Shown: positions 38,711-63,998 of the stretch, piece by piece
Position numbering within the stretch: position 1 is the first letter of the stretch
Layout: each line of letters opens with the position of its first letter
Source: a virus
Taxonomy: Duplodnaviria > Caudoviricetes
DNA length: 64,000 bases
Reading direction: 5' to 3' (one strand)
Virus record (IMG/VR): IMGVR_UViG_3300027747_002427
The notes under the pieces: generated by a model
Databases searched by the model: none
Seen by the model: the letters and a program-made list of their open reading frames with translations, nothing else
Told to the model about the DNA's origin: nothing
Program-made: the position numbers and the translations under genes

Positions 38711-38717
38711 ATTATAT

Positions 38718-39833: not shown

Positions 39834-40540
39834 TATCTTTGACCTAAATCTAGTGTTGATTTATACAATCCGTTTCTTGATCCTTGAGAAGCTATTGAAG
39901 GATACCACCAATATGTTTTGGCATTAAATTTATATAATTGATAAGCTATTTCCCAATCAGAAACTAATTGAAAAGGAATAGCTGATGAATATATTTTAGA
40001 TGCTATTTGAGGTTTTAAAAGATAAGCTTCTGCGCAATTAGTAGCCGGGTGATTCATTAAATAAGAATTTTTACTAATCTTTTGGCTATTAAAGATTTTT
40101 TCATTTTGAAAATTTATTCCACACCCTTCACCGAGGAATATAGCATCCCAATCTGTCGGAGTTTCTGAAATATACTTTTTATATAAGTCATTAAAATTAT
40201 TATTAAATAAAACATCGTCTTCTAAAATTAATCCAAAATTAGGACATTCCAAAGAAACCTTTTCTATTGCTTTTAAATGTTTTATTGTACAAGATATTTC
40301 TGGTAAATTTAAGGTCCTAAATATATGAATATTAGAATCCCATAAAGGGTCTATTTTTTGTTTAAATTTAATTTCATCTGCTAGATAATATTGTTTTAAT
40401 ATATCTGTAGATAAATCTTCTTGATCATATTCTTTTATAAATTCATAAGGAATTTTAGAATTTTCTAAAAAGGAAATGACTTTAGAATATCTATCTGATA
40501 ATTTTGTATAATGAACTATATAAATTTTATCTGGTTTCAT
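39833..40540 (-). CDS. GT25-like glycosyltransferase
   Basis: SCTIKHLKAIE, LILEDDV, AEAYLL. Confidence 0.75.
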   Translation of the reverse strand: MKPDKIYIVHYTKLSDRYSKVISFLENSKIPYEFIKEYDQEDLSTDILKQYYLADEIKFKQKIDPLWDSNIHIFRTLNLPEISCTIKHLKAIEKVSLECPNFGLILEDDVLFNNNFNDLYKKYISETPTDWDAIFLGEGCGINFQNEKIFNSQKISKNSYLMNHPATNCAEAYLLKPQIASKIYSSAIPFQLVSDWEIAYQLYKFNAKTYWWYPSIASQGSRNGLYKSTLDLGQR

Positions 40541-41433: not shown

Positions 41434-42185
41434 TTTTTAACATTATTCCAATCTTGACCGCCGGCTAAATGTCTTATGATTACATTTTCTCTAGATACTT
41501 TATTAATATTAAATTGGCATGAGCTTTCTCCTTCCCATTCTGTTACATTAAACCCTGTGGGAAATATAGAAACGTGTTCATTTAATTCTTTTAAAGAATA
41601 AACTATATCTTCATTTAATTCACTATGAAAACCATTATTAGGATATTCCCAAAAAGATTTATCTGAATGTCTTTTAATACCAGCTAAGCTATACCAACTT
41701 GCTTGTTCTCTAAATTCATGCCAAAAACTAGAAGCGGTTTGAAATCTTTCATGAATTGAAATCTTGTTATTTAATTTATTGAATCTTTCTTCTGATAAAA
41801 TATTGTTAATTAAATTTCGCGACCACTCATTAACTTTAATACTATACCAGCCCATACAATGTGTGTTGCCGGAATCTATACAATAACCAAAAGATTTACT
41901 TGGCTCTAATGAATGTTCTGTATTAACAAAATACATATCAGCATCTATATGAGCTAATATATCTCCGTCCTCAAGTTTGTTACTCTCTAATAAATCTTTG
42001 ACTATAGTAAATTTCCACCATGTAGGATTGCCTCTATATAAGTCTAAAGGATTTTCATTGCCAATGACTACGTATTTAAATCCATGTTTATCACAATACT
42101 CTTTATTTCTTGGTGAAATAATTTCATCAAAAATCTGCTGTCTGTGATCATTATATTTTGCTATAACAAAAAGTACTTTTTTCAT
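41421..42185 (-). CDS. GT34-like (galactosyl/xylosyl) transferase
   Basis: YCDKHGFKY, WWKF, HIDAD, REQA, IRHLAG. Confidence 0.6.
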   Translation of the reverse strand: MKKVLFVIAKYNDHRQQIFDEIISPRNKEYCDKHGFKYVVIGNENPLDLYRGNPTWWKFTIVKDLLESNKLEDGDILAHIDADMYFVNTEHSLEPSKSFGYCIDSGNTHCMGWYSIKVNEWSRNLINNILSEERFNKLNNKISIHERFQTASSFWHEFREQASWYSLAGIKRHSDKSFWEYPNNGFHSELNEDIVYSLKELNEHVSIFPTGFNVTEWEGESSCQFNINKVSRENVIIRHLAGGQDWNNVKKWIL

Positions 42186-43066
42186 TTTAATGAATCTAAT
42201 ATATTATCACACATTCCTTCTAATGTAAAGTATTTTGGATATATTTTTTTTATTTTAGAAAGCATATATTCTTGTCTTTTATTTGATATAGATTTTAATA
42301 TATTATCTAGATTGTCAATATCTTTAAAATCTACTAAAATAGCTATATCATCCCAATTTACTTTATTAGCAAATGGTATAAAGGGTTTGTTATAATATAT
42401 ATAAACTGGAATAGATCCCAATTGCATTGCTTCATATAATCGAAAGCTTGTTGCACCATATCCACGCGGACAAAGAGTAAATTTACTGCGAGAAGTTGTT
42501 TCTATAAAAAGATTCTGTCTTTCTGTTTTAACATCTGGAGACCAGTGTTTGGGTTTTAATACATATTCTTCTTTGTTTATCAAAACCTCTAACATTTTCA
42601 TTCTAATATTATGAGATACAGAAGCCCAAGTATTAGGAATATTTTGTGTGACACTTCCTACGAAACTACAAAATATATCTTTGGGTAAGTCTTTAATATC
42701 TTGAATGGAACTGCATATTAAAGGTATAGGAATTGTGTTGGGTACATTACCTCCAGCTGAAAAATGTATTGTATTGAGAGGGAACTCTTGGTAAGGCCCA
42801 TCATCATGTTGAGATACTGTAAAATACTTTTTACTTTTATCTAGGCTGTTTAGATCTTGTTGTAAATCATGTAGCAGATGAGTTCCACCTAAATATAATT
42901 CAGTCCAAAAAACGGGAATATATTCATATCCCGTTGTTTTAAATTTATCTATATTTTTTACATAATAATCATAAAAATATTCTTCTAAATATTTTCCTTG
43001 ATGATAAAAGGGATATGGATTAGTCTGTGTAACTATTCTATATTTTTCAAACTTTTCTAGAATCAT
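42182..43066 (-). CDS. Exostosin/GT47-like glycosyltransferase
   Basis: SKFTLCPRGYGATSFRLYEAMQLGSIPVYI. Confidence 0.85.
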   Translation of the reverse strand: MILEKFEKYRIVTQTNPYPFYHQGKYLEEYFYDYYVKNIDKFKTTGYEYIPVFWTELYLGGTHLLHDLQQDLNSLDKSKKYFTVSQHDDGPYQEFPLNTIHFSAGGNVPNTIPIPLICSSIQDIKDLPKDIFCSFVGSVTQNIPNTWASVSHNIRMKMLEVLINKEEYVLKPKHWSPDVKTERQNLFIETTSRSKFTLCPRGYGATSFRLYEAMQLGSIPVYIYYNKPFIPFANKVNWDDIAILVDFKDIDNLDNILKSISNKRQEYMLSKIKKIYPKYFTLEGMCDNILDSLK

Positions 43067-43739
43067 ATTTTTCTTTTACTTTATCCAATAATTTAATTTT
43101 ATTACTAAATGGTGTAGTCCAATTAGCATGATGTATTGTTATATTTTCTGGTATATCAAAATCTTCTACGCCCTGCCAGGTACCAGATGAATTTGAAGGA
43201 TTGGTTCTTTTCAAAGCCAATTCACCATAAGTCCAATAATCTTTGGATAACATCTTCCATTTAAATGATATTTTTTCTAAATTATTAAAATTGCTTATAA
43301 TATAATTAAAACAAACTTGTTCTTCCGGAAATTTCTCTAAATTACCTTCAACAGTTTTTAAAAAAGCTCTTGTTTTAGGGGTAGATCTCATTATAAAAAA
43401 CCCAGTATTAACTCCACCTCCATAATCATTTTGAAAAGCAGCATCATAATCACCTAGTTGTTGTATTACGTCTTTTGAAAAAGGTTTAAAAAATTGAATA
43501 TCTGGATCTGAAAACATAAAGCATTCTCCGTCTTTTGTTTCATAAGCTGCATCTATAAAACATTGAACTTTATATTTCATAGTATCTCTCCACCCATCGC
43601 TTTGAAATTCAGAACTAGGACATACTTGTGGTTTAAATTTAACTACAAGTTCTATATCAGTGTCAAAGGGAAAGCTTTTTATAAAGTAATCTTTAAACAT
43701 ATCATAATGAGATTCTGTAAATACGGTATAAAGTTTCAT
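43047..43739 (-). CDS. GT77-like nucleotide-diphospho-sugar transferase
   Basis: FSDPDIQFF, NTGFFIMRS, EQVCFN, HHANW. Confidence 0.75.
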   Translation of the reverse strand: MKLYTVFTESHYDMFKDYFIKSFPFDTDIELVVKFKPQVCPSSEFQSDGWRDTMKYKVQCFIDAAYETKDGECFMFSDPDIQFFKPFSKDVIQQLGDYDAAFQNDYGGGVNTGFFIMRSTPKTRAFLKTVEGNLEKFPEEQVCFNYIISNFNNLEKISFKWKMLSKDYWTYGELALKRTNPSNSSGTWQGVEDFDIPENITIHHANWTTPFSNKIKLLDKVKEKYDSRKV

Positions 43740-43805
43740 TGTTTGTAATTACCTTTATCGTCTCTCAAGTCTACAAGCTCACTTTTATTTTTTCGTAAAA
43801 ACCAT

Positions 43806-44576
43806 TTAAAGACATTTTAGATATTTTGCTTCTTGTTCTAATTCATCAGGTAAAGAATATAAAAATTGTCCGTATGGCAACCTTTTAATAAGGTAAGAAT
43901 ATATAAATTCTTTCCAGTTTTTATGATAAGGGGATTCTTCCCAAAGTTTGCTATTATAGATAGCTTCTGGAGAAGATTCATTCCAATTTAAATCATGTTT
44001 TTCATGACAAAGAAAAACACTTTTATTACCTAAAAAAGAATTACTTCTATTATACATTTCTAAAGCAAATGCAACATCCCATAAATGTTCAGCGTATATA
44101 TAATCTTTAAAATATTGTTTATTGTTTAACCACCAATTCTTTTTTACAGCCCAAGCATCAAATCCGGCTATTTCTATTCTAAAGGGTATGATATTATCTA
44201 AACCTGTTATAGGATAACAATCATGTCTTGAAAATGAATATGTATCATATTCTCCTTTTATTAATAATTTAATAATATTTTCTGTTAATAAAACATCACT
44301 ATTTAAAAACAAAAAATAATCACAATCGGTAGTTGATAATATATCAAAAAAATCTTTAGCAATGGGTTTTTCTGATTTAGAATTTGTAATATCTTTTGCT
44401 TTTCTTTTTAAAAAAGGAAGATGATTGAATCCTAAAGCATAATTTTTTTCGTTTTCATATGTAATATTATATAAAGATATATTGTTATGTTTTGAAGCGA
44501 GCTTATTTAAGACTTCTATACAAAAATCTTGTCTTTTATAATCTTTAAAAACATTAATTCCTATTGAAATTTTCAT
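43806..44576 (-). CDS. GT-A-like hypothetical glycosyltransferase
   Basis: YFLFLNSDVLL, AGFDAWAV, HLWD; start revised to MKISIG; C-terminus possibly frameshifted (see findings). Confidence 0.6.
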   Translation of the reverse strand: MKISIGINVFKDYKRQDFCIEVLNKLASKHNNISLYNITYENEKNYALGFNHLPFLKRKAKDITNSKSEKPIAKDFFDILSTTDCDYFLFLNSDVLLTENIIKLLIKGEYDTYSFSRHDCYPITGLDNIIPFRIEIAGFDAWAVKKNWWLNNKQYFKDYIYAEHLWDVAFALEMYNRSNSFLGNKSVFLCHEKHDLNWNESSPEAIYNSKLWEESPYHKNWKEFIYSYLIKRLPYGQFLYSLPDELEQEAKYLKCL

Positions 44577-45358
44577 GGTCTTATACCTTTTAAATATTCT
44601 ACAACCTCTTCCGGATGTTTGCAATTAATACTATTAATTTTTACACCATGCTTATTTGTAAAATAATTTATAGTATCTTGAATTACATCAGCTCTAGACC
44701 CATCCGGCCTATCGGCTTGAAGCCTACTTGTTGCAACTGGATTGTTTTCTATATATTCATCTGAATTAGTTATATCTGCAAAATACCAAAAAGGAGCTAC
44801 ATTAGGATTTAAAATAGATTGTCTAAATGCCATGTCTGCATCAAATAAATCTCTCATTTTTCCATCATAAAGTCCACATTTTATAAAACAAGATTTATGG
44901 TGATATGTAAATTCATTACACATATTTTGATAAAAAGACACCCCAAGTGTTTCACTATAATTGACTTGAAGAGTTGGAGTTCTAGCACCTGGGTGACCAG
45001 CTTGATCACTCATACTAACATATGAAAAATAATTCAATCCACTAATTTTAGATGTTTCTATATATTTTTTAAAAATATCTACATTCTTAATAATCATATC
45101 ATCCTCTATAAGGAATATATGTTCACAATCTTTATTCATTAGAAATGTTATACAATCATTTCTACAAACTGAAGGATATCTATTTTTATTATGTTGAATC
45201 CAATCACAATTATAAGAATTTTTATATTTGTCTCCTCCGTTAACAACTACAATTTCATCAATTATATTAGCATCTTTTAAACTATCAAAAAGAGTTTTAA
45301 AATAATTTTCTGAATTGTAGGTAGTAATACCTACACCTATTTTTTCATTATTAAACAT
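44573..45358 (-). CDS. GT2-like glycosyltransferase (paralog 1)
   Basis: KIGVGITTYN, VVVNGG, HIFLIEDD. Confidence 0.8.
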   Translation of the reverse strand: MFNNEKIGVGITTYNSENYFKTLFDSLKDANIIDEIVVVNGGDKYKNSYNCDWIQHNKNRYPSVCRNDCITFLMNKDCEHIFLIEDDMIIKNVDIFKKYIETSKISGLNYFSYVSMSDQAGHPGARTPTLQVNYSETLGVSFYQNMCNEFTYHHKSCFIKCGLYDGKMRDLFDADMAFRQSILNPNVAPFWYFADITNSDEYIENNPVATSRLQADRPDGSRADVIQDTINYFTNKHGVKINSINCKHPEEVVEYLKGIRP

Positions 45359-46181
45359 GATTTTTATATATTTGCTTTAAACTCTCTATTACTTCTTTTT
45401 CTGAGTAATTTTTTTCAATAGGTCCATATCCTTGTATTACACTAAAATTATTTTTTTGAATAAAAATATCTAGAGCCTTTTTAAAATTCTCTTGAAAATT
45501 AGATTCATTTCTAATCTTGCTTTGTTGATGATCAGGTACGATATCTTTTAAATATTTTTTAGAATCTTTAATATCTGCAAACCATCTAAATGGTGGGTGA
45601 TACCCTTTTTTTATTATTTGATATGTATGGTCAACATGCTCTAAAGCATTATAAAAATTCTCGTCCATTAAACCACAATCTTTTAATACATCTATATGAT
45701 AATAACTAAGGGCTCCTAGTATATTAGGATACAAGTCTATTTCTGTATGACCATAATTGACTGTTTTTCTAATAGTAGGATTTCCATAAGGATCTATGTT
45801 ATGATTGCCATGTAGACCAAAATTAAAATGTTTTATACCAGTAGCTTTGGAAGTATTAATATAAGCTTCAAATATATTATTATCTACAACTTCAATATCA
45901 TCTTCCATTAAAAATATATGTTCACAACCAATTTTTATTAAATGTTTTAAAGCTAAATTCTTTGCAACGGCAACACCTTCTTTATTTTTAGTCTTTATAT
46001 AATGAACATTATTTTCTTCACCTTGCTCTATAAGATTTCTTACATGCTCTTCTCCATCATCTACTATTACAAAACTAATATTGTGATTATCTTTAACTGA
46101 TTTATAACTCTTTTGAAAGAATTCTGGTCTATCGCAGGTTATTAATCCAACACCAATCTTACACGATATTGCTTTTTGCAT
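45351..46181 (-). CDS. GT2-like glycosyltransferase (paralog 2)
   Basis: KIGVGLITCDR, IVDDG, HIFLMEDD, ALEHVD. Confidence 0.85.
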   Translation of the reverse strand: MQKAISCKIGVGLITCDRPEFFQKSYKSVKDNHNISFVIVDDGEEHVRNLIEQGEENNVHYIKTKNKEGVAVAKNLALKHLIKIGCEHIFLMEDDIEVVDNNIFEAYINTSKATGIKHFNFGLHGNHNIDPYGNPTIRKTVNYGHTEIDLYPNILGALSYYHIDVLKDCGLMDENFYNALEHVDHTYQIIKKGYHPPFRWFADIKDSKKYLKDIVPDHQQSKIRNESNFQENFKKALDIFIQKNNFSVIQGYGPIEKNYSEKEVIESLKQIYKNHV

Positions 46182-46926
46182 AATTCTTTTGAATGATTTC
46201 CATGGAATTCAATAATTGTTCCTGGGTAACTCCTGCTGGTTCATTTTGCCCGGGAATATATTGATTATTATACATGAAATATGCATAGGAAATCTGTACT
46301 CCTTTATCTAAATCTGGTATATCTTTGTAATTTATTTTCTGAATCATGGAATTAGATTTAGATAAACCATCCTTTATAGAAGGATGAAAATGATTAGGAG
46401 GATATATACCCTTCTTTCTCATCTTTAAAACATAATCTAACACATCTAAATGTTTAGAATTATAAAATCTTTCATCAAAATAGCCGTTATTCTTCACAAC
46501 CCCTGTGTATAAGAATATAAAATCACTATTTAATTCTGGTGTAAGATTTAAAGTTACACCGGCTTCGTCATCTTCAAGAGGTATTGATTTATCACCTGGT
46601 CCTAAAATAAACCAAGTACCAAATACTTCTGCGGTTTTAATAGTCTTTTCAAATACATTTGGATTTTCTATAACTTGATTAGAGTTAATTAAGAATAAAA
46701 ATTTATAATCCTTAATGCGTAATTGTGATAATGCCCAATTACGTAGAGTAGCAAATGATACTTCTCTATCATAAGATCTAGAAATGGGGGTTTTAGAGGT
46801 GCGATTTTTCGTATTAGATACCACTACTACATTGTTTTTTAATTCTTCTGGTATAGATGAATAGCATCTATCAAGATCTTCTGAGGTGTAAACGTCTAAT
46901 ATTCCTATGCCTATTTTGTCATTCAT
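46159..46926 (-). CDS. GT2-like paralog 3 lacking the EDD motif
   Basis: KIGIGILDVY, FLFLINSN in place of FLxEDD, YFDERF, YPPNHFHP. Confidence 0.65.
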   Translation of the reverse strand: MNDKIGIGILDVYTSEDLDRCYSSIPEELKNNVVVVSNTKNRTSKTPISRSYDREVSFATLRNWALSQLRIKDYKFLFLINSNQVIENPNVFEKTIKTAEVFGTWFILGPGDKSIPLEDDEAGVTLNLTPELNSDFIFLYTGVVKNNGYFDERFYNSKHLDVLDYVLKMRKKGIYPPNHFHPSIKDGLSKSNSMIQKINYKDIPDLDKGVQISYAYFMYNNQYIPGQNEPAGVTQEQLLNSMEIIQKNYAKSNIV

Positions 46927-50492: not shown

Positions 50493-50723
50493 CAATTAAT
50501 AGATAATATCATGGAGAACATGAATGCATCGGGAGCTGGTGGAGCTTTCGGCACACCTCAACAAGCTGTATATAATCCACCTTCAAATATAAATTCCGGT
50601 GATACATATGCTCCTAATAATGCCATGAATATTTTTGGATTTCCTAAGATGGCTAAAAGAAAGAAACCAGAGTTTTTAGTATTTGGTAAATCCAAAAAGA
50701 AATTAAGAAAGAAAAAGAAATAA
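50475..50723 (+). CDS. Small hypothetical protein with basic C-terminus
   Basis: Divergent from uvsY; TAATG coupling to the next gene. Confidence 0.65.
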   Translation: MASRFQQLIDNIMENMNASGAGGAFGTPQQAVYNPPSNINSGDTYAPNNAMNIFGFPKMAKRKKPEFLVFGKSKKKLRKKKK

Positions 50724-51157
50724 TGGATAATGGCCATTGGATATTAGAAGATGGTGTAGAAATAAAAGAAGACACCTTTGGATTTATATACGAAATAACC
50801 AATACGGTTACAAATAGAAAATATATTGGCAAGAAACAATGTATTTCACGTTTTAAACGCAAACCTTTGAAGGGCAAAAAAAATAAACGTATAGACTATA
50901 AAGAATCAGACTGGAAGAAATATACAAGTTCTTCTAATGAATTAAATGCTGATATAGAAAAATATGGCAAGGATAAATTTACGTTTAAGATATTAAAAGC
51001 TTGTGGGTCTAAGTGGGAAAATGCTTACTTTGAAATAAAGGAACAATTAGAACGTAATGTTTTAATGAGAGATGATTATTATAACGGTATAATTAATGTT
51101 CGTATAGGTACTCCACCAAAAGAAATCAAGTTAAAATTCCAGTCGGAGGTTAAGTAG
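50723..51157 (+). CDS. GIY-YIG nuclease (T4 EndoII/Seg-like, short)
   Basis: GFIYEITN...KYIGKKQ...WKKYTSSS...FTFKIL...YYNGIIN. Confidence 0.85.
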   Translation: MDNGHWILEDGVEIKEDTFGFIYEITNTVTNRKYIGKKQCISRFKRKPLKGKKNKRIDYKESDWKKYTSSSNELNADIEKYGKDKFTFKILKACGSKWENAYFEIKEQLERNVLMRDDYYNGIINVRIGTPPKEIKLKFQSEVK

Positions 51158-52878: not shown

Positions 52879-55800
52879 ATGAGCATCAAATTTTCAGATT
52901 TACCTTTTTTACAAACCTTACAAAACGGAGATATTATTCCTATCGTAAGAGACAATACAAATTATATAGTAAATGGAAAATCTTTATACAATTCTTTAAC
53001 TGGTAATTTTTATGATTCTTTATATACATCTTTGACTGGTAATTTCATAAGCCCAGCAGCATTAAACACAGCCATTGCTCCTTTACTTCCAATTACAATT
53101 TACCAAAATGCCTCTGGTTCATTTGCAACATATACAGCATTAAATAATGCCACCAGTATTTTACTCCCAACAAGCGTATTTCAAAATGTTTCTGCTACTT
53201 TATTAACAAGAAGTGATTATAAAGCATCTTCGGCCACTTTACTCCCTACAAGTGTTTATCAATCTGGATCCGCTCTTCTCTTAACAAAAACAGATTACAA
53301 TTCTACTTCTGCCACTTTACTTCCGATTACAATTTATCAAAATGCTTCCGGTTCTTTTGCAACCTATACATCATTAAATGCAGCCTCTGGACTTTTAACT
53401 CTTTTAACAACTACAAGTAATCTTACAAGTCAATTAGTTCTTAACACGGTTATTAATTCTTTGACTGGTAATTGGAATAGTGCATATGCTTCTACAACGG
53501 CTTTGAACCTTTCTTCCGCTAAATGGAATAGTGCATATATAACTACATCTTCTCTCAATCTTTCTTCCGCTAAATGGAATAGTGCATATATAACTACATC
53601 TTCTCTAAATCTTTCTTCTTTCAATTGGAACAATGTTTATACAACAACTAAAGCTAATTCTGGTAACTGGCAGATTAAAGATAGACTTATAGCTGGTAGT
53701 TCTTCTGTAACTTTAAATGCAGCTGATGGTATATTAAATTTTGTTGGACCAGGTTATAATCCGGGTGGTTATATAAACCTTGGAAGGGGTTCTAGTTATA
53801 CCAATGTTGCTGGATGTATTATAGCATCTTCATCTAATTCCGGATATTATTCAGGTGCTGGTAGTCTTAATATGTCGTCTGGATCCGGGGATTATGATTT
53901 AGGAGGATATATTAAAACATGCAATTCTGGTGGATATATTAATACAATATGTCAAGGTGGTTCTATTAATACTTGTATTTATGGTGGTTCTATTAATACT
54001 TCTATTTGCGGTGGTTGTATTATTACATCTGGTTGTTGTAATATAGTCGGTGGCTCTATAACAACTAATGCCGGAATTTGTTCTAACGCCGGTGGTTCTA
54101 TTAATACAGCAGCCGGTACTAAACAAGCAGATAGTTATTTAAAAACCATAATCGTATCCGGTAATGATCCAAGAGGTGGGGGTGACGGAAATTATACCCG
54201 TTCTTTTAGTAATCCAGGCACTCGCGGAGCAACTACTAATTTAAATAATACATATTCTCAAATTGATGGATTTTCTATAATTTATCAAGATTATGGTGAG
54301 GGGGATTATTATTGGTATATAATTTCTAGAGACTCTGGAGATGGTAGTGGTTATTATCCAGATACAGTGCCTATTTACTCTTCATACCCTTATCAATATC
54401 TTTTTAATGATCAGACTTGGAATGCTTTTGGTGATTATGGACAAGCTCCGCAAGTAACATCAACTACTTTTTATCAACCAGTCACAAGCATCAGACCAGG
54501 AGCCGGTGGACTTATTAATACTGGTGGTGGGTATGCTAATTTAATATTTTCTGGTCTTAATGGAGGAAGCATTAATACTTCTGATGGTGGTGGTTCTATA
54601 AACACTAGCCTTAGCGGTGGATCTATTTGTACAGCTGGTGCTTGGACAAATATCTGTAAATTTGCTTTAGGAGGTTCAATTAATACTTCTGCAGACCCTG
54701 CTAGTATTAATCGTTGTGGAGGAAGTATTGACACAAGTGCAAATTCTGGATTTGCCGGTGGATCTATTTGTACTCGAGCCGGTGGTTCTATTAATACAAG
54801 TTGTGCAGGAGGTTCAATTAATACTTCAGGTAGTGGTGGTGGAGCTGGTGGTTCTATTAATACTTCAGGTTGTAATGGTGGAGCTGGTGGTTCTATTAAT
54901 ACAAGAAGTCAATCTAGTGTCAATGCTCCGGGTTCAATAAACACATCATCTGGTACCACTATAGGATCTATAGGTGGTAATATTAATACATATGGTTCTT
55001 GTGGCAATAGAGGTGGTTGTATTAATACTTCTGGTGGTAATACAGGTGCTGGTGGATCTATTAACACATCAAATGGTGGTGGTTATATTGACACTACTGG
55101 TGTTGGTACCATTCAATTAGGTTCTACTGGAACAAGAACAACTTTAACCGGTTCAGCTACAGCAAATAGAAGTATTAATTTACCTAATAATAATGGTACT
55201 ATTGCCCTTACAACTGATCTTTTATCAGTTAGTGGAACAGCCAATCAAATAACAGCAACCAAGTCTGGTCAAAATGTTACATTTAGCTTACCAAGTACCG
55301 CTGTATTCCCTGGTAGTGTAACAGTTCAAGGAAATTTAACGGTATCTGGTAGTGCTACATATATCAATGCCAATAATTTAATTGTTAATGATAATTTAAT
55401 TTATTTTGCAGCAAGCAACCCAGCTAATACTTTAGACATTGGCATGGTTGGTCATTTTACCCAAGAACCTCTTGGTTATAATCATTCCGGACTTGTTAGA
55501 AAATCTGGTGGTAGTACACCAGGTACCTGGACATTATTTTCTGGTTTAACATCCGAACCTCTATCAGCTTCTAATATCGATTGGGCTGATAATAACATTG
55601 TTGTAGATAGTTTAAGCGCCAATTTAATTGGTAATGTAACTGGTAATTTAATTACAACTCCTAATGGTACCAGTAATGATTGGAATAACAGCTTTGTTAA
55701 TAACATTATCAATTGGTCAACAGACGCAGTTACACCTTCGGTTAATGCTGCTGATAATGGTACTCGAGTAAAAACCCTTGGAGCAGGTGCTACAGTAACT

Positions 55801-56430
55801 TCTTCAAATTTATATGATAACAATGGTATATATTTTACTATAAATGGTGCTAATGTAAATGGATATGCCACGGCAACCGGATTAATTCCTACATCTCACA
55901 TATTCAACGGTCGAATGGCTGGAGGAGATAATACCATGCAATGGATTTACCCAATGATAACAACCTGGGATGTAGACTTTCAATGGAATTCTGGAGCCCC
56001 TGCTCCAAATAGTGGATTTAGTGCTTATTTTAATTTAGGATCTTCAGCAACAGATTACCTCAGTGGATCACTATTAAAAGCCAGAACTATAGCTAATGTG
56101 CCTAAAAAAGGATATAGTTTTTATCTTAACGGTAATAAAATGGTTGGTCAAGTTTGTGATGGTACAAATCTTACTTCTACCTCTCTTTCAGCTACAGTTT
56201 TAGCAAGAAGAATTAATCGTCTCGCGGCATATTTTGATGGTTCTAATGTTAATTTTTATTTTAATGGCACTTCTCTAGGTACTTTAGCTGGACCCGGAGG
56301 AACTGAAGGATGGGATTATGGTTCTATTTCTGCTAGTTTAATAAATAATGGTACTTACGTACCACCTTATAATAATGAAAACGCATTCCTTCTTTATAAA
56401 GTATCTCATAGCTTTAAGGTTGGAAATTAA
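52879..56430 (+). CDS. Long tail fibre / adhesin with GGSINT repeats and a C-terminal lectin-like head
   Basis: 1183 aa; IYQNASG and WNSAY shaft repeats, about 25 GGxIxT repeats, module shared with the 62343 gene. Confidence 0.85.
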   Translation: MSIKFSDLPFLQTLQNGDIIPIVRDNTNYIVNGKSLYNSLTGNFYDSLYTSLTGNFISPAALNTAIAPLLPITIYQNASGSFATYTALNNATSILLPTSVFQNVSATLLTRSDYKASSATLLPTSVYQSGSALLLTKTDYNSTSATLLPITIYQNASGSFATYTSLNAASGLLTLLTTTSNLTSQLVLNTVINSLTGNWNSAYASTTALNLSSAKWNSAYITTSSLNLSSAKWNSAYITTSSLNLSSFNWNNVYTTTKANSGNWQIKDRLIAGSSSVTLNAADGILNFVGPGYNPGGYINLGRGSSYTNVAGCIIASSSNSGYYSGAGSLNMSSGSGDYDLGGYIKTCNSGGYINTICQGGSINTCIYGGSINTSICGGCIITSGCCNIVGGSITTNAGICSNAGGSINTAAGTKQADSYLKTIIVSGNDPRGGGDGNYTRSFSNPGTRGATTNLNNTYSQIDGFSIIYQDYGEGDYYWYIISRDSGDGSGYYPDTVPIYSSYPYQYLFNDQTWNAFGDYGQAPQVTSTTFYQPVTSIRPGAGGLINTGGGYANLIFSGLNGGSINTSDGGGSINTSLSGGSICTAGAWTNICKFALGGSINTSADPASINRCGGSIDTSANSGFAGGSICTRAGGSINTSCAGGSINTSGSGGGAGGSINTSGCNGGAGGSINTRSQSSVNAPGSINTSSGTTIGSIGGNINTYGSCGNRGGCINTSGGNTGAGGSINTSNGGGYIDTTGVGTIQLGSTGTRTTLTGSATANRSINLPNNNGTIALTTDLLSVSGTANQITATKSGQNVTFSLPSTAVFPGSVTVQGNLTVSGSATYINANNLIVNDNLIYFAASNPANTLDIGMVGHFTQEPLGYNHSGLVRKSGGSTPGTWTLFSGLTSEPLSASNIDWADNNIVVDSLSANLIGNVTGNLITTPNGTSNDWNNSFVNNIINWSTDAVTPSVNAADNGTRVKTLGAGATVTSSNLYDNNGIYFTINGANVNGYATATGLIPTSHIFNGRMAGGDNTMQWIYPMITTWDVDFQWNSGAPAPNSGFSAYFNLGSSATDYLSGSLLKARTIANVPKKGYSFYLNGNKMVGQVCDGTNLTSTSLSATVLARRINRLAAYFDGSNVNFYFNGTSLGTLAGPGGTEGWDYGSISASLINNGTYVPPYNNENAFLLYKVSHSFKVGN
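53509..53618 (+). repeat. 51-bp tandem repeat x2 (LSSAKWNSAYITTSSLN)
   Basis: Near-identical copies at 53509-53559 and 53560-53610. Confidence 0.9.
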
Positions 56431-56444
56431 AAAAAAATATTATT

Positions 56445-56472
56445 TTGACAATTAATAAAATTGTTATAATAT
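56445..56472 (+). promoter_or_regulatory. sigma70-type promoter TTGACA-N16-TAATAT, 7 nt before ATG 56480, overlapped by the imperfect inverted repeat TGACAATT...AATTGTTA
   Basis: Read directly. Confidence 0.6.
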
Positions 56473-56479
56473 ATAAGAT

Positions 56480-57421
56480 ATGTCAGACAAATATGTTATT
56501 TTCCATATAGATGGAGGATGTGGCAAATCTATAGTTGGTACTTCTGTTGTTAAGTCTATTAAAAAGGCTTATCCTGAACATAAATTAATTGTTGTAACCG
56601 CCTATCCTGAAGTTTTTATACATAATCCTAACATTTTCAGAGTTTATAAATTTGGTCACATTCCTTATTTTTATGATGATTATATAAGCAATAAAGAATC
56701 AATTATTTTACGAATGGAACCATATCATTCAGGTGATCTTCTTTATAAGAAAAAATCATTATCAGAAATTTGGTGTGATGTTTTTAATATACCATTTGTT
56801 GACAGTAAACCAGAAATCTTTTTGACAGAAAGAGAGCTTATATATGCTCAGAATCAATTACAAAAAGAAGGACCAATTTTAATAATCCAATCTTCTGGCG
56901 GAGCAGAAAATCAAGGTTATCCTTATTCTTGGTCTAGAGATCTTCCACCATCATTTACTCAAGAAATAGTAGATACGGTAAAAGATAAATTTAATAAAAT
57001 ATTACATATAAGAAGAGACAATCAACCAGAATTACAAAACACTATTAAAATATCAGATAATTTTAGAAATTTATTTTCTTATATAAGTCTTGGTGATAAA
57101 TTTTTATGCATAGATTCTTTTGTACAACATACTGCTGCAGCTTTTAATAAGAAGGCTACAGTTGGGTGGATTTCAAATTCACCAGTTGTTTTTGGTCATG
57201 AAATTCATGATAACATTTTAGCATCTGGATCAGAATCATTTAGACATCGTATAGATTCTTACCTAGAGTCTGATGATTGGACTGGAGGAAGATTCCATGA
57301 ATGTCCATATGATAATATAAAAAATCTTTTTGATAAAGATCAATTTATAGAATCTATTTTAGGATCTAAAAATGATTTAATATTTGATATTCAGTCTCAA
57401 CCTGAAATTAAATTTGCATGA
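56480..57421 (+). CDS. GT9-like (heptosyltransferase-fold) glycosyltransferase
   Basis: GGCGKSIVGTSVVKSIKKAYP..LIVVTAYPEVFIHNPNI; FLCIDSFVQHTAAAFNK mirrors GT9 GGLGD...and DSG.MH.AAA motifs. Confidence 0.7.
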   Translation: MSDKYVIFHIDGGCGKSIVGTSVVKSIKKAYPEHKLIVVTAYPEVFIHNPNIFRVYKFGHIPYFYDDYISNKESIILRMEPYHSGDLLYKKKSLSEIWCDVFNIPFVDSKPEIFLTERELIYAQNQLQKEGPILIIQSSGGAENQGYPYSWSRDLPPSFTQEIVDTVKDKFNKILHIRRDNQPELQNTIKISDNFRNLFSYISLGDKFLCIDSFVQHTAAAFNKKATVGWISNSPVVFGHEIHDNILASGSESFRHRIDSYLESDDWTGGRFHECPYDNIKNLFDKDQFIESILGSKNDLIFDIQSQPEIKFA

Positions 57422-58242
57422 AGAATATATTCTTTAATTCTTCTATGCCTCGTAGTATGAGTACATTACTTCAATGTATTCTCAATCAACATCCAGAAAT
57501 CCAAGCAACACCTACAGATCCAGTATTAGAATATCTTTATGGTGCTAGAATGAATTTTACAACTACACCAGAAGTTAAAGCTATAGATAAAGATTTAGCA
57601 TTAAAGACTTGGAGAGGTTTTTGTAAAGGTGGTCTAGAAGGTTATGCTTCTTCTTATACAGACAAGCCAAATCTTTGTATTAAAACAAGAGGAGGAACTA
57701 TACATTATAGATGGTTTGAATCTTTTATGCCATATAAACCCAAGATGATTTGTATGGTTAGAAATTTAAAAAGTATTTTTGCTTCAATGGAAAAACTTTT
57801 TAGAAAAAGTTCAGAATATCATCAAGCTATACAAAGTCATTCTGAAATGAAAGGTACTAGTACAGCCAAAAGAATTGATTCTTGGATTGCTTCACCTCCA
57901 GTTGGGTTAGCATTAGAGAGATTAAATCAAACCTTTTTAGAAAGTATTAATAAAGAGGTTATTTATATAAGGGCAGAAGATTTAACTTCTTATCCTCAAA
58001 GAGAAATGGATAAGATTTATCAGTATCTTGAAATACAATCATTTAAACATGATTTTGATAATATAGAACAAACAATTAAAGAAGATGATTCAGTTTATGG
58101 TCTTACTTCAGACTTACATACAATCAGACAAAAAGTACAACCTTTGACACCGGACTATAATGAAATTTTAGGCAAACAAGTTTGTGATTGGATTGATAAC
58201 AACCTTGCTTGGTATCAACAAGGTTTTGGTTATACGAAGTAG
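57418..58242 (+). CDS. Sulfotransferase family protein
   Basis: 5'-PSB-like MPRSMSTLLQCILNQHP; 3'-PB-like VRNLKSIFAS; IRAEDL..P. Confidence 0.8.
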   Translation: MKNIFFNSSMPRSMSTLLQCILNQHPEIQATPTDPVLEYLYGARMNFTTTPEVKAIDKDLALKTWRGFCKGGLEGYASSYTDKPNLCIKTRGGTIHYRWFESFMPYKPKMICMVRNLKSIFASMEKLFRKSSEYHQAIQSHSEMKGTSTAKRIDSWIASPPVGLALERLNQTFLESINKEVIYIRAEDLTSYPQREMDKIYQYLEIQSFKHDFDNIEQTIKEDDSVYGLTSDLHTIRQKVQPLTPDYNEILGKQVCDWIDNNLAWYQQGFGYTK

Positions 58243-58243: not shown

Positions 58244-60259
58244 TTAACCTCTTGTACTATATACAGGTATATAACCTAATGATATACCGCTTACATCAAA
58301 TACTTCTATAGTCTTAACTATTGTTGTAACAGTTGTTGATGTTATAGCATTTCCAACTCTTAATGGATTGGCAACAACGACGCCTTGTGAGCTGAGATTG
58401 TTAACGTAAGTGAAATTCACTGCTGATGCACTTAAACCTGTACCTAAAATAAAGGTATTAGCAAAACCTTTTGTATCATTGGCAGAACCACCAGCAATAA
58501 ATGTAAACACTGCATCTGCTCTATTACCTCTACCACCACCAATTACAGAACAATCACCAGCTACAGTAATTGTATTACTTTGACCGCCAACAATATTAGT
58601 TGAAACACCACAAGCAATATTTGTATTGCCACCACCAATAAAGGATGTTGAACCAGTGCCCGTATTATTTGATATACCACCACCGATAAATGAGCAATTG
58701 CCGTTAGCGCAGTTTGAAGCACCAGCTCCAACTCCAGCTGTTCTACCAACAGCTGTATTTCCTATACCACCTAAAATTGAAGCATATTGACCTGATGCAG
58801 TATTTTGACACCCACCACCAACAACGGCGGCACAACTTTGGGCGTAATTACGGAAACCACCACCAACAAAGGAACAGTTACCTATCGCAGAATTCCATTT
58901 TCCGCCAACTACTGTATCATATTGACCGGATGCTGTATTGAGCTTACCACCACCGACAGTAGAATGGAAGCCACCTTGGTTTAGTAATCTATCATAAATA
59001 AACACGCATGTAGCTGATAAACTAGCACTCGATGCTTGATTAACAGAAAAGTCTCCACCAACAATAATACAACATGTATTAGGCTGACTAATAATATTAG
59101 CTACGGCAAAATTACCCGCAGAAAGAGGAACCCCGGATGTTGTATAAACAATAGACATGGCATTTGTACCAGCTGTTGAAAAGCAAGAATTCCATGACGC
59201 GCAACCAAAATTCATAAGTGTACAGCTACCATTACCTGATAAAGCTGCTGTTGCAAAGTTGGTTGGATTGGATGTATTAGTAATAGGTATTGCGCAATAC
59301 CCGCCAGTATGATTAAAATCTCCACCCCCTATAACAGAAGAACGAAGAGGGTTAAAATTACCATAGCCACCATCAATTATTGAATATCTACCTGATGCAG
59401 TATTACATCTACCTCCAACTACACCGGTATAACTTCCTGATGCTGTATTAAGCCCTCTCTTAGGTTGAATAGAGCTTGTTGCATCTACTAATGTGTAAGG
59501 TTGAGAAGATACAGATTGATAAGCTGTATTCCAATTAGCTGAATTGGATACAACTGTGGTTAATGCTCCGGAATTACTACTAAATGTTGTGTATGTATTT
59601 TGCCAGTTACTAGAAGCATTTTGATAAATTGTTGTTAATAATAATTGACTTGTAAGAGTGTTAGTAAGTGTTAAAGGTGTTAAAAGACTACTAAGAGTGT
59701 TAGTAAGAGTTAATGGTGTTAAAAGACTTGTTAAAGCATTTGTTGTTGCAAGAGGTGTTAATAAACCTGTTAAATTATTAACAACTGTGTTGGTAATAAA
59801 TACACTAGAAGTACTTGGATAAGCTGTTACAACACTATAAGCTGTATTCCATTGATTACTATTACCACTAGAGGCGTATATTACAGCGGTACCACTTATA
59901 TTACCAACAACAGTTAATTTTTGATTAGGGACACTTGTACCAATACCGACACTACCTATATTCTGTGTCAATATCAAATTACTGTTAGGGTTTATTATAA
60001 TATTATTTGAAGAACCTAGTCCCAAGTCTCCATATGAATTACCTACAGTAGCAACATCTGCATCAAAATACAATGGTGTTTGTTTTATGCCAACACTTCC
60101 GGTTGTAGTTAAATTGTTAACATTAAATGTGGTTGCAGTAGATGTATTAACCAAACTATAAACACTATTCCAATTATTACTATTACCACCAGAGGCATAC
60201 ATAACACCTGTAGCACTTAATAATCCATAAACTGTAGTTCCTCCTAGTAATTTTGCCAT
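58244..60259 (-). CDS. Tail fibre with YadA-like GGGxxN beta-roll repeats
   Basis: Repeats such as NTASGRYSIIDGGYGN and NSAIGNCSFVGGGFRN; WNTAY shaft motifs. Confidence 0.8.
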   Translation of the reverse strand: MAKLLGGTTVYGLLSATGVMYASGGNSNNWNSVYSLVNTSTATTFNVNNLTTTGSVGIKQTPLYFDADVATVGNSYGDLGLGSSNNIIINPNSNLILTQNIGSVGIGTSVPNQKLTVVGNISGTAVIYASSGNSNQWNTAYSVVTAYPSTSSVFITNTVVNNLTGLLTPLATTNALTSLLTPLTLTNTLSSLLTPLTLTNTLTSQLLLTTIYQNASSNWQNTYTTFSSNSGALTTVVSNSANWNTAYQSVSSQPYTLVDATSSIQPKRGLNTASGSYTGVVGGRCNTASGRYSIIDGGYGNFNPLRSSVIGGGDFNHTGGYCAIPITNTSNPTNFATAALSGNGSCTLMNFGCASWNSCFSTAGTNAMSIVYTTSGVPLSAGNFAVANIISQPNTCCIIVGGDFSVNQASSASLSATCVFIYDRLLNQGGFHSTVGGGKLNTASGQYDTVVGGKWNSAIGNCSFVGGGFRNYAQSCAAVVGGGCQNTASGQYASILGGIGNTAVGRTAGVGAGASNCANGNCSFIGGGISNNTGTGSTSFIGGGNTNIACGVSTNIVGGQSNTITVAGDCSVIGGGRGNRADAVFTFIAGGSANDTKGFANTFILGTGLSASAVNFTYVNNLSSQGVVVANPLRVGNAITSTTVTTIVKTIEVFDVSGISLGYIPVYSTRG

Positions 60260-60307: not shown

Positions 60308-62341
60308 TTAAGAAGTGATATTATTATATAAAGTCACTCTAGCAGATAATGGAATTACACTAGTGCTTATTATATCTGTATCTACATAAACTGGATTATT
60401 CCAATTTAGAGCAGTATTACCATATACTAAAGTATTTGCAAATGATCTATAACCTGTTGTATCATTGGGTAAGATTCTAAAGTCTAATCCATTACCTCCC
60501 TTGTTACCATTTTTATCTAAACCATACATATAGTTATTTGTAACTATACCATTTCTCCAAACCGGAGATTGTATGAATATACCCCAATTGTCGGTATAAA
60601 ATTTATTATTAGTTATATATGTACCAACGTTAATACCAACATCTGCAAACCAACCATATCCACATTGATAAGCAGTATTATTATCTACTAATGTATTGAG
60701 ATTTCCATAACCTCCAAACGCTTGATCTGATGAGAGAGCAAGATTATTAGTTACTATCATTGAAAGCCAACATGGACTACCCCCAGTACCGTCCCAATCA
60801 GGGTTATTACCTATCCAACCATATGCTGTTCCATATCTAGCTCTACGTTCTCCTGGATGAGGAATAGTAGCTACAACACAATTATCAATAAGATTATTTT
60901 TACTAAAAGTAGGACTTGCCCCTATATTAATCATTTGTATTACTCCGAGATTTTCATATATAGATGAATATCCATAAGCTGTTAAATTTTGATATATAGT
61001 ATGCCCAGAGTTGCGCATTACTAATGGACAACAATTTGATGTTCTCATTTCTGGTGATCCTGGACTATTTTGAACTGGTGCAACTGCTTGACCATTTATA
61101 GTATTAAGATGTCCAGTTCCGTCAAATCCATCAATACCGTTTATTACTTTAGCCTTAACGGTATAATCGTTTACTACTTCCATTGTTTTCCAATCAAAAT
61201 GATAATCAGCATCATTATAATATTCAGTACTACCTATTCTCCAGCTATAGTTACTTGTTGAGAATCTATCACCACCGTCATTTATATTAGGACCAGCTGA
61301 TAGACCATGAGGCTGAAGTGTTGTTACTGTAAGTGGATTTGTAGCACTATGAGTATAAACAAAACTTGTTATTGTTTTTATACAGTTTGATTTTGTAATA
61401 CCATCAATAATAAAATTACTAGCACAAAAACCAGAGACTTGATCCCAACCAGTACCCATATAAGCTCCAGCTAAATTATTAAAAAACTTATTTCTATATG
61501 TTCCAGACAAATAAAGAGTTGTCATAGATCCTGCACCGGATAGAGTCCAATTATTAAGTGGATGCCATCCTAAAGAAGGATTTTCATAAAATGCATATTG
61601 AACACCACCTTGTGTGCCACAGGTAGTATAAGAACCAGCACTTAAGTAAATACAAATATTTTCTCTTTGTGAAGGTCCTTGACCACCAGTACGTCTGCCA
61701 CAAAGATGCATCATTACATCATCAAAATTTATACTATTATAAGGATCTTGTAGAGTTCCAGATCCATATAGACTATCATTTCTATTGGCAATATAAATTA
61801 CAGTATCATAAAAAACTGGATCTGGTCGAGTAAAGTCCGGAGCTACATCAACAAAAATAGGGTCTGGAAAGTTAGTAGTTGATATATAAAAAGGTTCATT
61901 ACAATGCATGGAATTACAAAAGATAGTAAATGTTTCTCCATTATATGTTATGGTTCTGTTAAAAATATTTGAAAAATTATCATCAGAAAAAGGTGATACT
62001 TTTGCTTCAACAGTGGATGGAATTGTAGACGTTAAACCAATACCATTTGTATAACTAATATTGTTTGATAGACTACTATTAATTAATAAGTGAGGATTAA
62101 AATTATTAAGGGTTATCAAATAGGTAATTCCAGTTACTTCATCAAAATATTTTGATACTAAAACCCTTCCATCGTAAGTTTCTCTTTTAACCACACTTCC
62201 TCCCTGGATAGTCACTTCATCAAACTCTGTACTATAGTTAGCACCAGATGTTATTTTAGTTAATGTATATGTTATTTCATCAAAATAGGTATTAGTAAAA
62301 TATACACCATTAGATGATAATCTTGCGACTGTCGTTGCCAT
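60308..62341 (-). CDS. Tailspike-like protein: FDEVT-repeat N-terminus plus pectate-lyase-like beta-helix
   Basis: FDEIT/FDEVT x3; C-terminal Asn-ladder repeats (DNNTAY, ITNNKF, VTNNYM, VYGNTA). Confidence 0.7.
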   Translation of the reverse strand: MATTVARLSSNGVYFTNTYFDEITYTLTKITSGANYSTEFDEVTIQGGSVVKRETYDGRVLVSKYFDEVTGITYLITLNNFNPHLLINSSLSNNISYTNGIGLTSTIPSTVEAKVSPFSDDNFSNIFNRTITYNGETFTIFCNSMHCNEPFYISTTNFPDPIFVDVAPDFTRPDPVFYDTVIYIANRNDSLYGSGTLQDPYNSINFDDVMMHLCGRRTGGQGPSQRENICIYLSAGSYTTCGTQGGVQYAFYENPSLGWHPLNNWTLSGAGSMTTLYLSGTYRNKFFNNLAGAYMGTGWDQVSGFCASNFIIDGITKSNCIKTITSFVYTHSATNPLTVTTLQPHGLSAGPNINDGGDRFSTSNYSWRIGSTEYYNDADYHFDWKTMEVVNDYTVKAKVINGIDGFDGTGHLNTINGQAVAPVQNSPGSPEMRTSNCCPLVMRNSGHTIYQNLTAYGYSSIYENLGVIQMINIGASPTFSKNNLIDNCVVATIPHPGERRARYGTAYGWIGNNPDWDGTGGSPCWLSMIVTNNLALSSDQAFGGYGNLNTLVDNNTAYQCGYGWFADVGINVGTYITNNKFYTDNWGIFIQSPVWRNGIVTNNYMYGLDKNGNKGGNGLDFRILPNDTTGYRSFANTLVYGNTALNWNNPVYVDTDIISTSVIPLSARVTLYNNITS

Positions 62342-62342: not shown

Positions 62343-63998
62343 TTAATTAAATACTGTATCTAAACTATTTGTCAATGAATTATAAAATTGGTAAACTTTA
62401 ACAGTATTTGCTGATAAAAATTGTAATTGAGAATTCACAGCAATATTATTTGATGTAATTGTTTTTTGAGCTGATATAGAAGAAGTAGAAGTAACAAATC
62501 CAGTTAATTGACCCCCACTTAATGGTAAAGCATTAATTGAGAACTTTGTACCGGTTATTTTTGAATCTGCCAAAGATGTAATCCAAGAAGGATCGGAATA
62601 AGATTGATTTGTATAAACTCCATTAGTTACAGTATTAGCATTACCAGTTACATTACCAATTAAGTTAGCACTTAAAGAATCTAAAACTATATTTCTATCA
62701 GACCAATCAATATTAGCTGCTGAAAGAGGTTCCGTTGTTAGTCCAGAAAATAATGTCCAAGTACCTGGATTACCTTGTCCAGCTCTTCTGACTAGCCCAG
62801 TATGATTATAACCAAGAGGGGCTTGAGAAAAATGAGCTACTAAGCCTATATCTAATACATTACTACCATAGTTATTATCATTAAAATAAATTAAATTATC
62901 CCCAACAACAAGATTTTTAGTATCAATATAAGTAGCAGAACCTGCTAAAGTAAGATTACCAATAATAGAAACATCACCAGGAAACACAGCACTGGTAGGT
63001 AGGCTCAATGTAATAGTAGAACCAGACTTAGATACATTAATTTGATTAGATGTACCACTTACAGTTGTTATAAAAGAACTAGAAGCATTTTGATAAATAC
63101 TCGTAGGTAATAGAGTAGCAGTTGATGATGCTACAGAAGTTTGATAGTTATTAAAATTTGTATTTGTTACTAGTTGACTTGTTAATGTATTAGTAGTCGT
63201 TAATGGTGTTAATAAAGCAGAAGTAGATTGTAAAAGAGTATTGGTAGCATAGGAACTTAAATTATTAAGAAAAGCTGTTGTTTGTGTAGATCCATCTGGA
63301 AATGTTATCTGCCCACTAGATGCTAAAATTAATCTATCAGCATTAATATACTGAAAGTAATCAATAGAGTTAGTTGAACCACCACTAGGGGACAGTGCAA
63401 CCAATGTTGAGTTTGGTTTATCATATACGCAATTTAATATTGAATAAAATCCACTTAGTACAACTGGGGCGACATTACTTAATGCCGAAGTTAGCATTTG
63501 ACAGTTGGCTAAAGTAATGATACTTGAAGAGGCTGATGTGATAGCATTTGTCACAGCAGCAACTACTATAGAATCTACAAGACTTAAAGTTCCAGAAGTT
63601 AAAACTGGAGCCACAGTAACAGCGCTTTTAATAATTATATTTGCGCTAGCATTATTTACTGTTGTAAAATTTGGATTACCACCAAAAATAGCAACTAAAC
63701 CTGCACCAGTAATACTTGCGGAGCCATAGTCACATAAACGAAGAACAGTGTAGTCGGCGTTACTGCTTTTTGTAAGTGTGCCAGAAATCTCACAATTTAA
63801 AATATTTACATTTCCTGCACCAGTTGGCGTAGCTATGGTCAGGTTTGTCATCTTTATTCCAGCAATTGTACAACCAGTATTTGTGCTTAATGTTCCATAA
63901 AGTACTATATTACCGCCAATAAGCCCCGGACCAGTTATAGTTGTATATGGAACTGTTATTGATGGATTTTCAGTATAACCACCGGGATGAACAATAAT
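62343..63998 (-). CDS. Tail fibre/spike, 5'-truncated by window edge
   Basis: Frame stays open to the window end (IIVHPGGYTEN...), so ATG 63851 is internal; shares a 140-aa module with the 52879 fibre. Confidence 0.8.
   Translation of the reverse strand: MIVHPGGYTENPSITVPYTTITGPGLIGGNIVLYGTLSTNTGCTIAGIKMTNLTIATPTGAGNVNILNCEISGTLTKSSNADYTVLRLCDYGSASITGAGLVAIFGGNPNFTTVNNASANIIIKSAVTVAPVLTSGTLSLVDSIVVAAVTNAITSASSSIITLANCQMLTSALSNVAPVVLSGFYSILNCVYDKPNSTLVALSPSGGSTNSIDYFQYINADRLILASSGQITFPDGSTQTTAFLNNLSSYATNTLLQSTSALLTPLTTTNTLTSQLVTNTNFNNYQTSVASSTATLLPTSIYQNASSSFITTVSGTSNQINVSKSGSTITLSLPTSAVFPGDVSIIGNLTLAGSATYIDTKNLVVGDNLIYFNDNNYGSNVLDIGLVAHFSQAPLGYNHTGLVRRAGQGNPGTWTLFSGLTTEPLSAANIDWSDRNIVLDSLSANLIGNVTGNANTVTNGVYTNQSYSDPSWITSLADSKITGTKFSINALPLSGGQLTGFVTSTSSISAQKTITSNNIAVNSQLQFLSANTVKVYQFYNSLTNSLDTVFN

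Follow-up and report, generated by a model that had tools for sequence, protein, structure and literature searches.

A coupled GT9-like glycosyltransferase and sulfotransferase that probably decorate the fibres of aquatic phages

Introduction

The locus described here raises the question of what a phage modifies with a glycosyltransferase (GT) and a sulfotransferase (ST) that are encoded together among its fibre genes. Both genes lie in a 64,000-nucleotide stretch of the viral record IMGVR_UViG_3300027747_002427 (Caudoviricetes), referred to below as the window. The window has about 30% G+C and comes from a T4-like myovirus, with genes for the UvsW helicase, UvsY, and gp46- and gp47-like nuclease subunits. 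Its UvsW shares only about 34% identity with any cultured phage in the phage collection, and a blastn search of the GT-ST locus against that collection gave no match. The role of sulfotransferases in phage genomes was called unclear by a 2023 study (PMC10580990).

The GT-ST pair probably decorates fibres, and many aquatic phages share it. We give an even chance to a fuller proposal, in which the two genes make up a cassette for fibre decoration and the added sugar, probably sulfated, comes from a donor supplied by the host. The evidence resides in the folds and motifs of the two enzymes, their coupling, their association with fibre genes in unrelated phages, their independence from a nearby heptose gene island, and the presence of adenosine 5'-phosphosulfate (APS) kinase genes in relatives.

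A Coupled Pair of Soluble Enzymes

The two genes, the second encoding an enzyme of the type dependent on 3'-phosphoadenosine 5'-phosphosulfate (PAPS), are as follows.

56480..57421, + strand: GT9-fold glycosyltransferase P0001, 313 aa; N-terminal loop GGxGK, donor motif D212-S213...H217; divergent subfamily
57418..58242, + strand: PAPS-type sulfotransferase P0002, 274 aa, with the 5'-phosphosulfate-binding (5'-PSB) loop PRSMST and the 3'-phosphate-binding (3'-PB) pair R115/S123

The stop codon of the GT gene and the start codon of the ST gene overlap in the sequence ATGA. The initial annotation had described a two-gene unit with this overlap, sited among four fibre genes; both open reading frames (ORFs) are real, and the overlap and the siting are seen in the window. 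Neither enzyme has a signal peptide or a transmembrane segment, the maximum 19-residue hydropathy being 1.1 for the GT and 0.8 for the ST. No flippase, ligase or lipid-carrier genes were seen to accompany the pair.

Lake-metagenome contigs, the longest about 220 kb, carry close homologues of both proteins in the hundreds, at 64-96% identity. Counterparts of the window's GT (64-95% identical) and ST (74-96% identical) occur in each T4-like relative that was examined, and all 12 longer records that were searched carry both. ST follows directly 3' of GT in nearly all of the 24 viral loci found via GT that have sequence beyond it. L019 and L025 lack a directly following ST, and L006 stops at the GT.

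The Glycosyltransferase Is a Divergent GT9-Fold Enzyme

P0001 has no hit in Pfam, and PF01075 is not reached even at E <= 1; heptosyltransferase models give faint hits confined to the N-terminal part. The family of P0001 comprises 744 representatives at 50% clustering, and an AF2 model built on 121 diverse family members has a pLDDT of 95. The strong matches of this model are GT9 structures only. VIA Z scores reach 22.9 to 3TOV, a GT9 enzyme of Veillonella, 19.9 to WaaF (1PSW), 19.8 to TibC and 19.7 to WaaC (2H1H), against 11.4 for the best GT-B match outside GT9, and Foldseek places the model on GT9 structures with an E of 2e-12. The GT9-like assignment in the initial annotation is thus borne out by structure.

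The relationship can also be detected in sequence once the whole family is used. The family profile retrieves WaaF from the PDB with an E of 0.004. In hhalign it matches E. coli WaaF with 94% probability, D212-S213...H217 falling on the DSG..H donor motif. PF01075 is reached by 26 of the 121 family members (E <= 0.01; best 6.5e-9). The P0001 family is a divergent offshoot of GT9/PF01075. Within the motif D-(S/T)-G-x-x-H-x-A-A-A, P0001 has D212-S213-F-V-Q-H217-T-A-A-A, aligned to NDSGLMHVAAAL in WaaF and VDTGLSHLTAAL in WaaC. D212, S213 and H217 are conserved in at least 90% of the 121 members, and together with K16 and R153 they are the near-invariant residues of the family.

Lys16, in the GGxGK loop, stands at the position of the catalytic Asp13 of WaaC and WaaF. 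This correspondence is register-level rather than residue-level evidence, read from structural alignments that begin with model residue 4 on chain residue 1, together with the N-terminal sequences. P0001 is a GT9-fold enzyme of a distinct subfamily; because Lys16 takes the place of Asp13, its donor and acceptor are not inferable from GT9.

A lysine at the catalytic position is also what would be expected if the protein were a fibre assembly or localisation factor devoid of transferase activity, like the inactive GT9-like protein BimC or the plant NDH subunit PnsB1, both of which are among the structural matches. The near-invariance of D212-S213...H217 and R153 across the 121 members argues against such a role, as do the coupling to ST and the occurrence of fused family members, which argue for chemistry. 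We regard a non-catalytic protein as highly improbable. The fused domains are GT25 in three cases and an FkbM methyltransferase in three, and in L120 the ST gene overlaps the end of a GT9-like::GT25 fusion gene. These fusions fit a glycan-building role for the family. The extra domains of fused members were considered as possible STs and rejected, being not ST-like by BLASTP; the ORF 3' of the L128 fusion is likewise not an ST. A scan of cellular genomes with P0294 as the query found nothing.

The Sulfotransferase and the Limits of Its Fold

P0002 matches two Pfam families above their cut-offs, PF13469 (Sulfotransfer_3; 38.8 bits against 27) and PF00685 (Sulfotransfer_1; 30.9 bits against 22), and its structure model has a pLDDT of 92. 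The highest VIA Z scores of the model are to tyrosylprotein sulfotransferases (TPSTs; 19.2-19.7, with TPST1 at 19.7), followed by the CurM ST at 16.3 and heparan 3-O-sulfotransferase (3-OST) at 14.1. The sulfotransferase assignment therefore stands.

The initial annotation had cautioned that the loop reads PRSMST in place of PRSGT, and the substitution is real. Measured against the 5'-PSB consensus P-(K/R)-S-G-(S/T)-T, P0002 retains R12, S13, S15 and T16. Distant members of the family have the loops PRSGST (L022 and L117) and PRTGST (L024). The 3'-phosphate pair R115/S123, within R-N-L-K-S-I-F-A-S, is invariant in 31 sequences, and the invariant residues of the ST are T16, K89, R91, K109, R115, S123, D224 and H234. 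The conserved residues of the GT and the ST indicate that both active sites are live. A second, distant ST paralogue occurs in record G002 (35019-35792, - strand), about 10 kb from the GT-ST pair; it is 23% identical to P0002 and has the loop PRSGAT.

The rank of the TPSTs raises the alternative that the pair performs two separate modifications, in which ST would sulfate fibre tyrosines, as do TPST and RaxST, and GT would independently glycosylate Ser or Thr. The fibres are Tyr-containing repeat proteins, as this alternative needs, and the margin of the TPST scores over CurM and 3-OST favours it. However, in a Swiss-Prot fold search NoeE, a carbohydrate ST, ties with the TPSTs (E 7e-9 over 297 columns), and NoeE is also the sole NCBIfam hit of P0002. 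Because of this tie, the ST fold does not identify the acceptor. In addition, the catalytic Glu-Glu pair of TPST1 is aligned to Pro32-Thr33 of P0002 in a HMMER alignment, so that the TPST glutamate is not kept, and ST is always coupled to GT, in L120 after a fusion of two GTs. Two separate modifications are consequently improbable in our estimate, and direct tyrosine sulfation, like the non-catalytic role, is a minor alternative.

Association with Fibre Genes in the Window and Beyond

The pair is flanked by four genes for fibre- or spike-like proteins.

52879..56430, + strand: fibre-like protein, 1183 aa; 49% Ser, Thr, Gly and Asn (S/T/G/N), GGSINTS-type repeats, and a C-terminal module in common with the gene at 62343
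58244..60259, - strand: fibre-like protein of 671 aa, bearing NTASG-type beta-roll repeats; the neighbour type found most constantly beside GT-ST
60308..62341, - strand: right-handed parallel beta-helix protein, 677 aa, tailspike/depolymerase-like, with Atlas feature scores of 0.93-0.95
62343..63998, - strand: fibre-like protein, at least 502 aa, its frame open to the end of the window

The label 'fibre' for these neighbours is given by composition, repeats and relatives. S/T/G/N content is 45-49% in three of the proteins, which have internal repeats, and 39% in the 677-aa protein. The shared module of the 52879-56430 and 62343-63998 genes, which lie on opposite strands, spans about 140 residues (SGT.NQI...NLIGNVTGN). 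Fibres in L012, L014 and L020 match the C-terminal part of the 62343 product at 70-87% identity. The 671-aa protein yields Atlas leads to YadA_head and LbR that fall below 0.9. The beta-helix predicted for the 677-aa protein is the fold of tailspike depolymerases, which hints at a polysaccharide receptor. NTASG-type repeats are found in many, not all, of the neighbours of GT-ST pairs. A YQNAS-type motif was considered as a general acceptor site and rejected, being present only in the window and L012.

Between uvsY and this fibre module lies a SegE-type GIY-YIG homing endonuclease gene (50723-51157, + strand; Pfam E 4e-31), and several relatives have this gene at the same site.

In relatives, the fibre-like neighbours are only 30-50% similar to those of the window or are replaced altogether. 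That the enzymes are strongly conserved while the fibres diverge or are replaced was counted in favour of a fibre-decoration cassette.

The link that the initial annotation drew between the pair and fibre genes holds for one cellular contig and for six phage contexts that are independent of one another. Wherever a phage context includes flanking sequence, the GT9-like gene adjoins large S/T/G/N-rich fibre ORFs. For example, the 66.7-kb record G010 has a single-strand order that starts with a 1897-aa fibre with collagen, beta-roll and Peptidase_S74 domains and continues with a 537-aa Sortilin/BNR-like protein, a small ORF, the GT (42% identical to P0001) and the ST (47% identical to P0002). In L024 and in the Kyanoviridae single-cell virus AG-345-L05, GT and ST are no more than 700 bp apart and lie beside ORFs of 42-44% S/T/G/N. 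GT alone is present in L025 and in the Pelagibacter phages HTVC111P and HTVC112P. The GT start in HTVC112P overlaps the stop of an annotated tail fibre gene, whose product carries Peptidase_S74. The cellular case (L117, 4951-10571 of the contig JAXOUH010000359.1 from a metagenome-assembled genome) has housekeeping genes and encodes a secreted 985-aa YadA_head and Peptidase_S74 protein, two tandem GT9-like paralogues and a linked ST, which is 37% identical to P0002 and has the canonical PRSGST loop.

On its opposite strand, G010 also carries genes for an FkbM methyltransferase and a 681-aa fusion of GT4 and GT9.

Sources of the Sulfate Donor

The initial annotation had remarked that no PAPS synthesis is visible, and this holds for the window, where sulfate-activation genes are lacking throughout the 64 kb. 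The gap is closed in part by genes for APS kinase in four relatives. Three of them, G005, G007 and G009, have clear APS kinases (E 1e-47 to 1e-54). The fourth record is G010, in which the gene lies directly 3' of ST: here (L029, 9214-10018, - strand) a 145-aa APS-kinase-like ORF (Pfam E 5e-12) is followed by a 125-aa ORF of the CTP_transf_like nucleotidyltransferase fold, and the two might form a minimal PAPS-making unit. No ATP sulfurylase of the Sat or CysD type was found in five related records. APS kinase in the absence of ATP sulfurylase suggests that host APS is turned into PAPS. A metagenome scan with the cysC gene of a relative did not list the contig of the window, a scan that may omit the window's own record.

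Independence from the Heptose Island

A heptose-type operon at 33452-38055 encodes a SIS isomerase, a GHMP kinase, a nucleotidyltransferase, an epimerase and a transaldolase. It lies 18.4 kb from the GT-ST pair, in accord with the roughly 18 kb given initially. The operon is housed in a 13.5-kb glycan island (33452-46926) between gp46 and gp47, which has at least seven other glycosyltransferases.

The initial annotation had proposed that the phage's own heptose feeds the GT. Under this proposal, GT would use NDP-heptose from the operon and heptosylate fibres in the manner of Aah and TibC, and ST would sulfate the heptose. The GT9 fold, the alignment of the C-terminal donor motif with the DSG/DTG..H of WaaF and WaaC, the place of TibC among the top structural matches and the presence of a heptose operon in the same genome are all consistent with it. 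In contrast, the co-occurrence of the GT9-like gene with heptose genes, which had been suggested as a check, fails: the heptose kinase is found in none of 12 GT-ST records and a GmhA-like SIS isomerase gene in none of five, the complete 225,756-bp genome G007 being included in both counts. G007 also has no PF16363 sugar dehydratase/epimerase.

The island moreover has a history of its own. In G014 (56783-73419; L125 and L126) it is 78-91% identical to that of the window, whereas the core genes of the two phages (gp46, gp47, UvsW and the DNA polymerase region) are only 50-60% identical, a disparity that implies lateral movement of the island between related phages. No GT-ST pair is present in G014 within 10 kb downstream of the syntenic site, in a record that is 39% complete. 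A 321-aa ORF of G014, examined as a possible GT9-like gene, is not GT9-like.

Further points against heptose feeding are that the island has glycosyltransferases of its own, that P0001 lacks the N-terminal extension of about 95 residues found in TibC, and that a lysine occupies the GT9 Asp position. GT-ST is independent of the heptose island. Nothing supports a heptose donor in this particular phage, and we consider heptosylation from the phage's own pathway quite unlikely. The island moves as a module of its own, and it would be unsafe to presume that it feeds P0001.

Promoter and Timing

A promoter-like element lies in the 49-nt gap 5' of the GT gene.

56445..56472, + strand: sigma-70-like promoter, TTGACA followed by TGTTATAAT close to the GT ATG; the scan alone is not above chance

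TTGACA occupies 56445-56450, and TGTTATAAT stands a few bases ahead of the ATG. Across the AT-rich window, promoter-like sites are not enriched (58 against 55 expected from shuffles). Nevertheless, 9 of 12 relatives keep a TTGAyT element with an A/T-rich -10 at this position, among them relatives with a different gene upstream. The initial annotation had given the pair its own promoter, and a promoter-like site does precede it.

The T4 late-promoter octamer TATAAATA is strongly under-represented in the window, with 5 sites against about 20 expected. The octamer is unusable for classing the genes of the window; the late promoters of this phage probably differ in form from it.

Fibre or Envelope as the Acceptor

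In the mechanism we favour, the soluble GT and the translationally coupled PAPS-dependent ST would act in the cytoplasm of the infected cell on the phage's own S/T/G/N-rich fibres. GT would add a sugar to the fibre, and ST would probably sulfate that sugar. The donor would be drawn from the host nucleotide-sugar pool, phage heptose being not obligatory, and in at least some relatives an APS kinase encoded by the phage could top up PAPS from the APS of the host. The benefit might be shielding or a tuning of adsorption. Fibre decoration is the most economical account of enzymes that are conserved, soluble and coupled, that travel with fibres across unrelated hosts, and whose kin are fused to tailoring domains. 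We put forward one possibility tentatively: in several lineages of aquatic phages, the tail fibres would be sulfated by the phage's own dedicated GT9-like/ST cassette, whether on an O-glycan or directly, and in some cases with a phage APS kinase.

Several observations weigh against fibre decoration. Characterised GT9 enzymes mostly act on the lipopolysaccharide (LPS) core, and in fold searches reviewed LPS heptosyltransferases outrank autotransporter heptosyltransferases. The whole close clade of P0002 has Met or Cys in place of the 5'-PSB glycine. The four flanking proteins have no family match in Pfam or PHROG, and tblastn of two fibres of the window against the phage collection returned nothing, so that they have no sequence tie to characterised fibres. 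No acceptor motif common to all neighbouring fibres was found. Finally, the GT-ST promoter looks more like the promoters of uvsY and other replication genes than like a late one, so that timing does not single out structural genes.

Some of these points agree with the main rival, in which GT and ST would remodel the host surface. At the cytoplasmic face they would modify a glycan of the envelope, be it LPS core, capsule or the precursor of an S-layer glycan. Such a change could mask the receptor against superinfection or keep progeny off debris, and the siting of the genes would reflect the co-evolution of receptor-binding and receptor-modifying functions. The GT is closest to LPS heptosyltransferases among both structures and reviewed proteins, the promoter is sigma-70-like as in early and middle genes, and the neighbouring beta-helix spike implies a polysaccharide receptor. 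The charge of the GT N-domain can be read both ways, being mildly basic (pI 8.5) but less so than in WaaC and WaaF (pI 9.7-10).

Remodelling of the host surface is favoured by the GT9 ancestry and the early-type promoter, but the breadth of hosts and the coupling to fibres are hard to square with it. The family lies beside fibres in phages of very different hosts and, on the cellular contig, beside a gene for a secreted fibre-like protein. These hosts are too diverse for one common envelope acceptor; an acceptor on the fibre would move together with the gene, and we infer that a fibre acceptor is favoured. The GT of HTVC112P is translationally coupled to a tail fibre gene. The position of the GT9 catalytic Asp differs in P0001, and the pair comes without the flippase, ligase or lipid-carrier gene mentioned above. 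On balance, we judge remodelling of the host envelope to be unlikely.

Comparison with Known Systems

P0001 shares with WaaC and WaaF of GT9 (2H1H and 1PSW, with 3TOV) the GT-B fold, at Z 19-23, and the donor motif D-S/T-G..H-x-A-A-A. It differs from them in lacking a PF01075 hit, in having Lys16 at the Asp13 position, and in context, as it is found among phage fibres and not among LPS core genes, with no link to heptose synthesis.

The bacterial autotransporter heptosyltransferases (BAHTs) TibC and Aah resemble P0001 in their GT9 fold and in that their genes adjoin one for a repeat-rich surface fibre or adhesin. The proposed logic is also alike, namely cytoplasmic Ser/Thr glycosylation within beta-solenoid repeats, the fibre acceptor of P0001 being putative. 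Sequence identity between BAHTs and P0001 is only 9-11%, and the TibC extension that supports an iron-containing dodecamer is missing, residue 3 of P0001 corresponding to residue 96 of TibC. BAHT systems are not known to include a coupled sulfotransferase.

For the sulfotransferase, the Nod-factor enzymes NoeE and NodH with NodPQ provide a parallel: the sugar that neighbouring GTs assemble is the substrate of a PAPS-dependent ST, and there is a dedicated PAPS-synthesis gene, as here, where the acceptor is putative. NoeE matches P0002 at the level of fold only (19% identity), and the phages supply APS kinase only. TPST1 and TPST2 are like P0002 in PF13469 membership, in the 5'-PSB and 3'-PB motifs and as the best structural match. 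They differ in sequence (14-16% identity), in the catalytic Glu, which is replaced by Pro/Thr, and in the 5'-PSB Gly, which is replaced by Met.

As summarised in a later paper, GTs encoded beside structural genes in mycobacteriophages have been proposed or shown to decorate virion proteins, the targets being the capsid and tail tube C-termini, in phages of actinobacterial hosts (Freeman et al. 2023, PMC10527164, as cited in PMC12619734). The present case differs in its GT9 fold, its fibre neighbours and its attached ST, joined by cysC in relatives. No description of a GT9-like/ST fibre cassette was found in the literature searched.

Implications for Aquatic Phages

The cysC genes of viromes are usually read as an aid to sulfur assimilation by the host. 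A GT9-like/ST cassette wired to fibres, sometimes with an APS kinase, provides a testable alternative, in which PAPS production would serve the decoration of virion or receptor. Fibre sulfation, if true, would give bacteriophages their first case of a virion modified with sulfate, and it would assign a function to phage sulfotransferases and to the cysC 'auxiliary metabolic genes'. Fibres bearing a negatively charged sulfated glycan would affect the adsorption, host range and particle stickiness of abundant freshwater and marine phages. Relatives of the cultured Pelagibacter phages, which carry the GT, would be among those affected, so that a direct test is possible in cultured phages.

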